From IMG/VR virus record IMGVR_UViG_2519899561_000027: a stretch of 9,158 bases of DNA; one strand, written 5' to 3'. The position numbers were made by a program. Below are positions 1-3,000 of this stretch, in pieces (positions within the stretch are counted from its first letter, which is position 1; the number at the start of each line of letters is the position of its first letter). Source of the DNA: a virus (Duplodnaviria; Heunggongvirae; Uroviricota; Caudoviricetes).

Positions 1-3000
1 GCGGCTCATGTCCTGCACATCATGCAGACAATGGTCCGCCGGAATGATGTCGTTATATTTACAGGCGACACCGCCCGGTGTCACCGTACTGCGACGCGCC
101 AGCTGCTTAATGCGCGGGTCCGGACGGTCATATGTCTCCGGCAGCGGAAGGCCTTCACCATATGCCATGCTGTTTGACTGCCCTGCCAGAACCACAACAA
201 AGTAATACCCGGGGTCGCTGGTGGCGCTGATTACTGCACCTTCTCCACCTGTCGGCTTCACCACAACAGGTGTGCTCACATCACCTTCTGCGACAATCGC
301 CTGAATAAGTGCTGCGCCATCATCCGTATACGAAGAAAACGGCCCACCATATGGTTGCCATCCTTCACGAATTTTTTGCGCAAGTGCATCAGCAAGGTCT
401 GACGGCGACGCCGCCCTGACAACATCATAATGTTTAAATGTCATTATTCCTCCCGGCCGGGATAGTGTATTAAATCAGATATGGAGTGGGCTGTAGTCCG
501 GAAGCCTGAATGACACACGGGGACTACAGCCCAAGAAATGAAAAAAGGCCACGCAGTTGCGCAGCCTGATAAACCCTGGTTAAAATCCACACGATAACAA
601 CACAACAATATCAGTATCTCATGCTATTGCCCGAACCCATTCGGGCATTTTTTTACCCATAAAAAAGCCCCTCCGGAGAGGGGCATGTTTGCATGCACAT
701 TCTTTTTCTTGCATGGTGCCGGGTGCCTCCCGGTGAATTCAGTACCAGCACCTGAATCCGCGATTACCCCATATACCTGGTTGCTGATTGCCCCTCCGCA
801 CAGGGGGATTCACCATGCCAGTTTCTTTTAACAAACTCCCCGCAAACCAGACAACAGTCAACCGCCTGAATTGTGAGACATTTAAAAAAAGGCCCGCAAA
901 AGCGAGCCAGGGAAAATAAGTGTGGCGCGTTGTACTGGATTCGAACCAGCGACCTGGCGATTATGCGTCGCTCGCTCTCACCACTGAGCTAAAGGGCCGG
1001 GCGCAGGATAATAACGGTACGTAACTAATCCTGCAATATCATCCGTTCTGACTGACTAAATCCTGTACTTCCCTGACCGTCTGCTCAAAACGTTCAGTCT
1101 CCAGCTCAACGCCAGTTGCACGACGCCCCAGCGCCATCGCGGCTTTGACTGTCGAACCCGACCCCATGAAGAAATCTGCAACCAGGTCACCCGGACGACT
1201 GCTCGCACTGATTATCTGCTGCAGCATTTCTGCCGGTTTTTCGCACGGATGTTTCCCGGGATAGTACTGCACCGGTTTATGCGTCCACACATCCGTGTAC
1301 GGCACCTGCGCCGTCACGCCAAAATACCGCCGCAGATGTTTATATTCACTCTGCAGTTCCGCATACTGCCGGTTCAGTGAAGTATACGTCTCCAGCAGCT
1401 GGTGGTGGGGCTTTTCCAGTTCACCGCGCTGATGCTTCTCTTCTGCCACCCGGGCAAACAGCGCCTGTAATTTCAGATAATCGCTTTCGTTCGGCAGCAG
1501 CCACTGACCGGCACTGAACCAGTGCGACACCATGTTTTTCTTTCCTGTGGCATCTGCAATCTGTTTTGCCGTTATCCCCAGGACAGCGCGCGCATCACGA
1601 AAGTAAGAAATCAGCGGAGCCATCACATGCTGTTTCAGTGCCCTGCCCTTCGCCTCATACCCGGCATCTTTCGGACGATACGGCCCCTGATAATGTTCCG
1701 CGAACAGAATGCGCTCTGTGGCGGGGAAATACGCCCTCAGGCTTTCCTTGTTGCACCCGTTCCAGCGTCCGGACGGCTTCGCCCAGATAATATGGTTCAG
1801 CACACTGAAGCGTTCACGCATCATGATTTCAATGTCAGATGCCAGGCGATGGCCACAGAACAGGTAAAGACTTCCGGCAGGTTTCAGCACCCGCCAGAAC
1901 TGCGCCAGACACTGGTCCAGCCACTTCAGGTAATCATCGTCGCCCTTCCACTGGTTATCCCAGCCCTCAGGCTTCACTTTAAAGTACGGCGGGTCCGTGA
2001 CTATCAGGTCAACAGAATTTTCGGGTAACGACCGGATAAATTCCAGGCAGTCAGCGTTGATCAACTCACAACTGGATATTTTTACAGTGTTAAACATGGA
2101 TCATTAAGCCTGTCTCTGATAGGCTCATTCTGCTTTTGCGCAAAGCAGTGGGCCTGAGGTTTGCTTGTGATCCAGACGCATGAGCAGATGGCTGGTGAGT
2201 GCCCCTAACACCCACCAGCCGCCCATTTACCACAAATAAAAAAGCCTTCAGGACTGAAGGCGTCTGTAACAACCGAACTGATAGTCTGCCAGACCCGCCA
2301 TAACAAGCTGGGTCAGTATTAACTGGCAGCGTTCGCGTGAAAGGTAAGTATTCTGCGCAATCTCCCCGACTGTCGCCGGTTCGGTGACGCTTAATTCATT
2401 AAACACTGCTCTGGCGGTTTCTGTCATATCCTGCTGTTTTAGCATGCTTTTTTCCCTTTTCCGGTTAACGTGACACACCAATAACTCTTGTCAAAAAAGC
2501 CAGCAAGCTGAAAGACCGGTATTCACCGCCACCAGCGCGTTTACTGTACTGACGCGATTTCAGTCATAAAAAACCCGCCAGGCGGCGGGGTGTAAAAAAT
2601 CTTCTAACGTCAGGCATAAAACGCCCATCGTTAGGGCAAATTTACCACAGATTCGGGAAAAATCAACAAAGCTATCTGGTCACCTTTTTCAGTTGTTGTT
2701 CTGCCCATGCTTCTTCAATATCAAACTGCACCACCAGCGTATCGTAAAAACGTTTAACTGTTTTTTTCCATGTATCAAGAGATATGGCATCGGTTACATT
2801 ACATATGGCATTAAATGCCTCCGTTGAAGGTAATCTTTCATAGCCACGCCCACCACAACGCTGACAGTTTCTGAAAACCGGCACACCCTGTTTTTCCGAC
2901 TCTTCACGATGAATGGCAACACCGCGCCCACGACAATCTTTACAGGCAGTGGATACCTCTCCCTTCCCTCCACACTCCGGACAGGCAACTTTTACCACCT

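Follow-up and report, generated by a model that had tools for sequence, protein, structure and literature searches.

A small winged-helix gene and a covarying leader RNA accompany M.EcoGII-type adenine methyltransferases in lambdoid and N15-type phages

Introduction

Adenine DNA methyltransferases (MTases) of the M.EcoGII family are sold and widely used as non-specific writers of N6-methyladenine (m6A). According to PMC5778455, M.EcoGII methylates adenine in any sequence context, the recombinant enzyme is fully active alone, its constitutive expression slows growth and it is silent in the lysogen; its authors propose, as an inference of their own, that induction turns on its expression and that it then counters restriction. 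Non-specific adenine MTases regulated by the Com protein have been described in Mu-like prophages (Hin1523, Nma1821 and Hia5; PMC3299994). In the literature searched, no description was found of how a phage silences and then switches on a harmful methylase of this kind. The present work deals with such an enzyme in a stretch of 9,158 nucleotides from a virus of the Caudoviricetes (IMG/VR record IMGVR_UViG_2519899561_000027), hereafter called the window, in which the MTase gene is preceded by a conserved spacer and by a gene for a 65-residue winged-helix protein of the phrog_331 family.

A first-pass annotation had interpreted these genes as a late-expressed epigenetic cassette, formed by a FaeA/PapI-like regulator and an orphan MTase, and placed in the slot where Shiga toxin (Stx) phages carry stx. 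The comparisons presented here reveal that the cassette is not an epigenetic switch; it is a phage module that is already widespread and has been characterised in part. New with respect to the databases and papers searched is also the recognition that phrog_331 occurs with the M.EcoGII-type enzyme in phages of the lambdoid, Stx and N15 types, whereas Com takes this place in Mu-like and some aquatic phages. The best overall explanation, to which we assign a probability of roughly 0.7, is a late methylase module that is kept shut by several locks.

The methyltransferase and its winged-helix partner

As had been anticipated, the product of the larger gene matches PF01555; the match covers residues 29-340 and includes an N-terminal DPPY motif (TDPPYF) followed by a C-terminal FxGxG motif (FFMGSGST), the order of the beta class. 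It shares 325 of 349 residues (93%) with M.EcoGII, a value that is a lower bound given the optical character recognition errors in the reference sequence, which was taken from the supplementary table of PMC11551740. With the MTase of phage 1720a-02, presented in PMC5778455 as a close relative of M.EcoGII, the identity rises to 98%. Judged by these similarities, the window enzyme would be a non-specific adenine methylase of the M.EcoGI/GII type. Its solitary character was borne out, as no restriction genes are annotated near the MTase and the PADLOC matches are MTase models only. A non-specific MTase cannot write the site-specific heritable patterns of the PapI/Lrp/Dam switches, and this removes the core of the epigenetic reading.

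The small open reading frame (ORF) is preceded by a Shine-Dalgarno-like AAGGG (2458-2454), and both the ATG and the AAGG Shine-Dalgarno are conserved across relatives. In comparisons with other Enterobacteriaceae, non-synonymous differences amount to 0.07-0.12 and synonymous differences are saturated at 0.65-0.87; the ORF is a real gene under purifying selection. Homologues number 340 at the cluster level and come from Escherichia, Salmonella, Klebsiella, Citrobacter, Buttiauxella, Pantoea and others; when 1.8 billion representatives were searched exhaustively with the profile, only 87 members were returned, and therefore the family is a compact one. The phrog_331 profile matches the window ORF with an E value of 1.7e-37, gp51 of phage N15 with 5.7e-28 and ORF59 of PY54 with 1.8e-26, a relationship to which hhalign gives a probability of 93%. 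The literature searches yielded no function for N15 gp51. An 82-aa ORF of the Vibrio phage ST2-1pr that looked by eye like a winged-helix relative is not in phrog_331. Likewise, orf-64 of lambda (64 aa, locus 822-1016), which occupies the equivalent place between pR' and S, is unrelated in sequence to the winged-helix family.

The part of the first-pass claim that referred to the fold was upheld, since the AlphaFold model of the 65-aa protein shows three helices and a beta wing with a predicted local distance difference test score (pLDDT) of 89. Membership of FaeA/PapI was not: PF04703 (FaeA) matched 0 of 26 diverse family members at E<=1, whereas the PapI control sequence scored 110 bits. With the window protein, Pfam gave winged-helix matches that were all below threshold, and among the same 26 members DprA_WH was touched by 20, TrmB by 15 and FaeA by none. 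Alignment of PapI to the family profile with hhalign reached a probability of 67% with 18% identity over 45 columns, which corresponds to generic winged-helix similarity, and PapI was not found among the 60 closest folds. These closest folds include SelB and Zalpha, winged helices of a single domain whose ligands are RNA hairpins or Z-form nucleic acids. A sequence search of PDB chains with the small protein yielded nothing meaningful, neither NCBIfam nor PADLOC offers a model for it, and PF10122, the Mu Com family, did not match it; the protein has only two cysteines in 65 residues and no CxxC pairs. As annotation, the names 'TrmB family transcriptional regulator' and 'FaeA/PapI-like' are both over-specific.

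The association of the two genes is close. A member of the MTase family lies directly after the small gene in every locus with a contig long enough (34 of the 35 fetched), and this linkage is kept down to approx. 40% identity of the small protein, with an ATG-to-ATG distance that is usually 340-354 nt. These loci span Enterobacteriaceae and Morganellaceae and stand behind Q proteins of three Pfam families. A scan of viral contigs for the MTase contributed only copies that were at least 95% identical, with no added diversity. The 65-aa protein is a dedicated partner of the M.EcoGII-type MTase family and not a PapI/FaeA homologue; it is a tractable protein.

Regarding its genomic setting, a query of 581 bases (2100-2680) has 100% identity with DNA of a prophage in E. 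coli O111:H- 11128, where the PGAP annotation is 'hypothetical protein' for the small ORF (WP_000917735.1) and DNA methyltransferase for the gene that follows. This region, with the leader, the small ORF and pR', was matched in 2368 of 5426 complete E. coli genomes (44%), with up to seven copies each. In the Stx2a phage Stx2_EH1910, Q is followed by the 65-aa gene and the methylase, and these by three tRNAs and stx2AB; phiP27 has the identical gene order ahead of stx2e. The cassette therefore sits between Q and the tRNAs-stx block in these phages, and does not take the place of stx as had been suggested. In SfV and in one Pantoea prophage it precedes the lysis genes. The cassette is directly upstream of stx2 in many Stx phages, with the leader on the same late transcript, so that its folding or processing could bear on the toxin mRNA.

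Two phages carry a Com-type gene with this module. In the Aeromonas phage phiARM81ld a Com-family zinc ribbon, p55, is encoded at locus 1829-2044 (PF10122, 27.9 bits against a cut-off of 22.9), and in ST2-1pr a Com-family ORF of 36 aa, unannotated in its own record, is found at locus 1328-1438. Both have the phrog label 'translational regulator' and sit between the leader and the MTase; com overlaps the MTase start in phiARM81ld and ends approx. 30 nt before the MTase in ST2-1pr. The layout recalls that of com and mom in Mu. Com and phrog_331 were never found together in the phages examined: phrog_331 goes with the enterobacterial lambdoid and the N15-type modules, Com with these two, and VHML/MAR and phiO18P have neither. 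This distribution is consistent with a shared regulatory niche, although it is not proof of it.

A structured leader in front of the methyltransferase gene

The spacer between the small ORF and the MTase measures 150 nt in the window and contains a leader RNA composed of a P1 domain (2226-2180, with a helix of 14+6 bp), a P2 hairpin (2148-2130) and a closing helix. In the latter, UGGAUCA (2174-2168) pairs with UGAUCCA (2103-2097), i.e., the six bases before the MTase AUG and its A. The minimum free energy of the window fold is -60.6 kcal/mol (z -4.73), and comparable z values were obtained for Salmonella (-3.7) and Providencia (-4.6). A purine-rich Shine-Dalgarno sequence is absent from the MTase gene, and the element conserved before its AUG is UGAUC, which is complementary to the GAUCA near the 3' end of 16S rRNA. 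If UGAUC pairs with 16S rRNA, the closing helix would compete with the ribosome. The leader is thus predicted to hide the start codon and the weak ribosome-binding region of the MTase, which would affect its translation.

The spacer is better conserved than its surroundings, with a nucleotide identity of 0.73-0.77 versus 0.40-0.57 at the third codon positions of both flanking genes in enterobacterial comparisons. RNAalifold, applied to a plain MAFFT alignment of 26 sequences, recovered P1 and the closing helix with compensatory changes from AAG/CUU to GGA/UCY. A covariance model trained on 18 Enterobacteriaceae sequences only has a single match in the window, and it also finds matches just 5' of the MTase or com in Proteus/Providencia (81-91 bits), VHML/MAR (46.7), PY54 (46.6), phiKO2 (43.3), N15 (39.8), PhiR46_1 (39.7), the Vibrio phage ST2-1pr (24.4) and the Aeromonas phage phiARM81ld (19.8 bits). 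In the leader alignment 94.6% of the cells are paired, a percentage inflated by the fitting of the alignment to the model, versus 28-43% in slid controls; changes on both sides were seen in 32 of 37 pairs, and the observed values were reached by 0 of 500 shuffles. When folded separately, the leaders of the enterics, VHML, ST2-1pr and phiARM81ld carry differing sequences at the same position, and in every case the strand they pair with is the start-codon region of the ORF that follows first. All sequences have the complementarity for another long-range helix, RUGGGC:GCCCAY; it is almost invariant, and for this reason covariation says little about it.

A whole-window scan with Rfam 15 gave nothing in 2098-2247 at E<=1, and a permissive scan only chance-level matches of at most 18 bits. 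The literature searches found no described leader for M.EcoGII-type methylases, and neither the small gene nor a leader came up in the searched parts of the M.EcoGII paper (PMC5778455). A 60-aa ORF (2090-2272) that overlaps the leader has no Pfam match, and spacer lengths of 142, 147, 149, 150 and 152 nt break its reading frame; since these length changes are not multiples of three, a coding function is excluded. Relative to the databases and papers searched, the leader is new as a covarying RNA that is predicted to occlude the start site of an M.EcoGII-type methylase. Its strong covariation across four phage groups makes it a good candidate for a new Rfam family, and it provides a concrete, mutable element for testing methylase control.

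Some observations concern the annotation of neighbouring starts and the loci with short spacers. In N15, gene 52 as annotated in RefSeq starts too late (locus 2235) and gives a truncated methylase, whose homology starts at locus 2001 (ATGTTAAAAACT), right after the leader; in PhiR46_1 the annotated methylase start (1456) falls inside the leader. Among the Morganellaceae-type loci L007-L010, with spacers of 72-108 nt, none has the leader, and L007 and L008 show a terminator-like hairpin and an AAGGA Shine-Dalgarno.

Architecture of the late region

All features of the cassette and of the Q region lie on the minus strand (Table 1) and, from their arrangement, the cassette would be the first of the late operon in a lambdoid prophage. 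The position that the first-pass annotation gave to the small ORF, between two intrinsic terminators and immediately upstream of the MTase, agrees with the terminator scan, and the alignment with lambda places both genes behind a pR'-like promoter, as had been stated.

Table 1. Coordinates of the features identified in the window.
Feature	Position	Strand	Basis
DUF968/HNH gene	4926-3877	-	ORF calls, Pfam
RusA gene	3864-3490	-	ORF calls, Pfam
Q antiterminator gene, 273 aa	3493-2672	-	Pfam PF03589, E 5.3e-52
Lambda-like late promoter pR'	2666-2624	-	Alignment with the lambda Q-S intergenic region
tR' intrinsic terminator	2589-2568	-	Terminator scan; hairpin 2589-2574, CCCGCC..GGCGGG, 6 G-C pairs followed by T6
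Conserved promoter-like block, CTTGCTG-N12-AGAGTTAT-N-TGT-N-TG	2507-2471	-	Comparison of 30 loci
Small winged-helix gene, 65 aa, ATG start, phrog_331, WP_000917735.1	2445-2248	-	ORF call, PGAP, homologues, phrog
Second intrinsic terminator	2261-2234	-	Terminator scan; stem GCCTTCA/TGAAGGC 2261-2244, then TTTTTTATTT
Conserved structured leader RNA, ~130 nt	2227-2098	-	Folding, covariation, covariance model
Orphan beta-class N6-adenine DNA MTase, M.EcoGI/GII family, 352 aa	2097-1039	-	PF01555, E 7.7e-44
tRNA(-Met)-like gene, single	993-923	-	Rfam tRNA, 37.3 bits at 933-992; PGAP tRNA-Met

The Q gene also belongs to phrog_127 ('anti-termination protein Q-like') and is labelled 'antitermination protein' by PGAP. 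Directly after its stop begins pR', with a -35 element TTGATT (2666-2661), a -10 element TAAATT (2644-2639) and the pause-type AACGATGGG (2632-2624), in which the -10-like AACGAT is recognised; on the basis of this alignment it is assigned to the lambda type, whose -35, -10 and pause elements have established roles. Given that the stretch after Q aligns with lambda pR', a hairpin at 2638-2622 reported by the terminator scan was discarded as a terminator and is taken as the initial transcribed region of pR'. It was also observed that the Q protein is of the PF03589 type and not of the lambda-Q type, and far larger than lambda Q, and still the promoter has the TAAATT/AACGAT layout of lambda; a second match of this protein is to the DnaJ CXXCXGXG zinc-finger repeat (E 7e-7).

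Both putative terminators have a G+C-rich hairpin followed by a U tract. At the position of tR' other genera also have hairpins, with different sequences. The second hairpin shows compensatory changes in other Enterobacteriaceae, where the T runs are weaker, and is absent in Proteus/Providencia. The TGA stop of the small ORF (2250-2248) lies inside its 3' arm, so that the overlap between stem and stop codon described earlier is real. Between 600 and 3600, 10 terminator-like sites were counted versus 2.9 +/- 1.7 in shuffles. The transcript from pR' to tR' (2632-2567, minus strand), which is predicted to be constitutive, would have only approx. 65 nt, and could be a distinct small RNA (sRNA).

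Upstream of the small gene, a block with the consensus CTTGCTG-N12-AGAGTTAY-N-TGT-N-TG is present in 30 of 30 loci, with fixed internal spacing and at a distance of 40-52 nt from the ATG. A similar sequence is annotated as 'putative late promoter' in N15 and phiKO2. A sigma-70 scan of 600-3600 called no promoter and missed pR' itself; therefore, it cannot decide whether the block is a promoter. If it were active, the small gene would be a moron with Q-independent expression; the first-pass view that this gene is expressed under Q antitermination alone is thus uncertain. The word CAGAGTTA, shared by the upstream block and the leader and considered by eye as an operator candidate, was dropped, as only some genera keep it.

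Downstream of the MTase, the Rfam match of the tRNA-like gene spans model positions 7-64. Unlike Rfam and PGAP, ARAGORN found no tRNA at this gene; Stx phages carry three tRNAs here, and the gene may correspond to the first of these in a degraded or atypical form. Just downstream of it, two putative sRNA genes are arranged back to back, each ended by a terminator-like hairpin: the prophage anti-sRNA AgvB (592-653, plus strand), with a full-length Rfam match of 96.5 bits that is overlapped by a weaker AsxR match, and STnc100 (655-847, minus strand), with a full-length match of 144.5 bits. On the other side, in the nin-like prophage region, the ORFs named by PGAP as a ParD antitoxin (5342-5599) and a ParE-RelE toxin (5605-5904) have the opposite orientation (plus strand).

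Proposed regulation and alternative explanations

In the explanation favoured here, the MTase would be harmful to the growing cell and would hypermethylate the progeny phage DNA late in the lytic cycle; DNA modified in this way would escape restriction in the next host, the role proposed by the M.EcoGII authors (PMC5778455). Silence in the lysogen would result from stacked locks. Two of these are sequence features, i.e., tR', where the constitutive pR' transcripts would stop, and the second terminator after the small ORF. A third one would be the leader, which by pairing the bases before the AUG and its A with UGGAUCA would occlude the weak ribosome-binding region and so could limit translation. 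By analogy with lambda, a Q-modified polymerase would read through both terminators. The 65-aa protein is most likely the module's own regulator. Its gene always adjoins the promoter-like block, and transcription factors are most commonly encoded next to their sites in this way. The leading reading, given somewhat less than an even chance, is that the winged-helix protein binds DNA at this block.

Several points weigh against this explanation. Each of its functional steps was inferred, and anti-restriction by M.EcoGII-type enzymes in real infections is likewise a proposal of the M.EcoGII authors (PMC5778455). The promoter-like block is not a canonical sigma-70 promoter, and the pI of the phrog_331 proteins (4.7-6.5) is acidic, an unusual property among proteins that bind nucleic acids. 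In addition to the inflated pairing percentage mentioned above, the occlusion of the start codon is weaker or differently built in the N15-type leaders. Leader and small gene are also found apart: VHML/MAR has the leader without phrog_331 or Com, and three Morganellaceae-type loci keep the winged-helix gene and the MTase with a spacer of only 72-108 nt and no leader.

In a different reading, the small protein would bind the leader RNA, for instance at the apical GUG-UUNNAG-CAC of P1, open the closing helix and activate MTase translation once it has accumulated. The start region is occluded, which makes some opener plausible; nucleic-acid-binding winged helices such as SelB and Zalpha are among the closest folds; and this MTase family and leader come with a Com gene in phiARM81ld and ST2-1pr. 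In the phages examined Com never co-occurs with phrog_331, which would then be a non-homologous replacement of Mu Com. Nevertheless, the acidic character of the protein and its persistence in loci without the leader speak against such binding, as does VHML, where the leader stands without a small regulator. Furthermore, com is downstream of the leader in the Com phages, which makes the com-MTase junction, rather than the leader, the presumed site of action of Com. This possibility, including the replacement of Com, is considered unlikely. An equally doubtful and broader form of it is that leader and phrog_331 make up a post-transcriptional switch for non-specific DNA methylases, in which the winged helix binds RNA or triggers its processing and thereby frees translation late; if this were true, Stx, lambdoid and N15-type phages would contain an RNA family not recognised before, and their winged helices would be RNA binders of a new class. 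It is also conceivable, with a similarly low likelihood, that the small protein is no gene regulator at all but binds the MTase or another protein (for example tempering or targeting methylation, or countering methyl-dependent restriction), or that it is an independent moron that has its own promoter and terminator and hitch-hikes with the MTase. Its acidic pI, the succession of promoter-like block, gene and terminator, and a linkage to the MTase that is kept even where the leader has been lost would fit this proposal; however, recombinant M.EcoGII is active alone and needs no partner for catalysis (PMC5778455), and pure hitch-hiking is hard to square with a linkage that holds across lambdoid and N15-type genomes in two gene orders.

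For the spacer itself, roles other than a translational lock were considered, such as a processing site with P1 as an RNase III substrate, a stable sRNA released from the late transcript or an element that works at the DNA level. The 14+6 bp helix of P1 and the N15-type copies, which do not clearly occlude the start codon, agree with this, and the pR' leaders of Stx phages yield functional sRNAs such as StxS (PMC7547250). Against it, compensatory changes keep the start-adjacent strand paired in four divergent lineages, which indicates that what is conserved is the occlusion of the start region, and the length changes of 142-152 nt leave no room for a coding role. These roles are slightly less probable than the alternatives for the small protein, and they do not exclude the lock. 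By far the least probable proposal is the original one, where a PapI/FaeA-like regulator and the methylase would set heritable methylation at sensitive promoters as a prophage epigenetic switch. A small stand-alone winged helix of PapI-like size adjoining an adenine MTase, together with the hhalign similarity over 45 columns, speaks for it. It is largely refuted by the lack of PF04703 matches among the 26 members; by an MTase of the non-specific type, with no target motif, whose relative M.EcoGII is silent in lysogens and slows growth when expressed (PMC5778455); and by the context, with no fimbrial operon or Lrp-type setting and the cassette always at the start of phage late operons.

Comparison with known systems

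The locked late module favoured above resembles several described systems, each in part. M.EcoGI and M.EcoGII of E. coli O104:H4 C227-11 (PMC5778455) agree with the window enzyme in length class, in the beta-class motif order and in being orphan and prophage-borne; silence in the lysogen would be a further likeness. The com-mom operon of Mu likewise has a late, broad-specificity DNA-modification enzyme that is harmful to the host, a gene of approx. 60 aa just upstream and an RNA structure that hides the start. In contrast, Com is a zinc ribbon whereas the window protein is a winged helix for which RNA binding is only hypothesised, and the genes overlap in Mu, whereas here a terminator and the 130-nt leader lie between them. 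PapI/FaeA, which with Dam and Lrp controls the phase variation of pili, is also a single-domain winged helix of similar size next to adenine methylation; there, however, the setting is a GATC-specific Dam and a fimbrial operon, and here a non-specific MTase and a phage late operon. The C proteins of restriction-modification systems have an Xre-type helix-turn-helix, act on C-boxes and mainly time the endonuclease. They share with the window a small gene for a DNA-binding protein beside a modification gene and a presumed purpose of timing control, but the window locus has no annotated endonuclease and the fold is different.

The late promoter region follows the pR'-6S RNA-tR' arrangement of lambda, with a constitutive promoter after Q, the TAAATT and AACGATGGG elements and an early terminator. 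The pR'-tR' transcript of lambda (6S RNA) has 194 nt. The StxS sRNA of Stx phages has 258/74 nt (PMC7547250). Both are longer than the transcript predicted for the window. Related modules are those of N15, phiKO2 and PY54, which have phrog_331 (phiKO2 gp51 is also a member), the leader RNA and the MTase family, in the order gp51, late promoter, terminator and gene 52 methylase. The difference resides in the position of the winged-helix gene: gp51 and ORF59 immediately precede the putative late promoter and terminator, after which comes the methylase, whereas in the window the gene is located between tR' and the second terminator.

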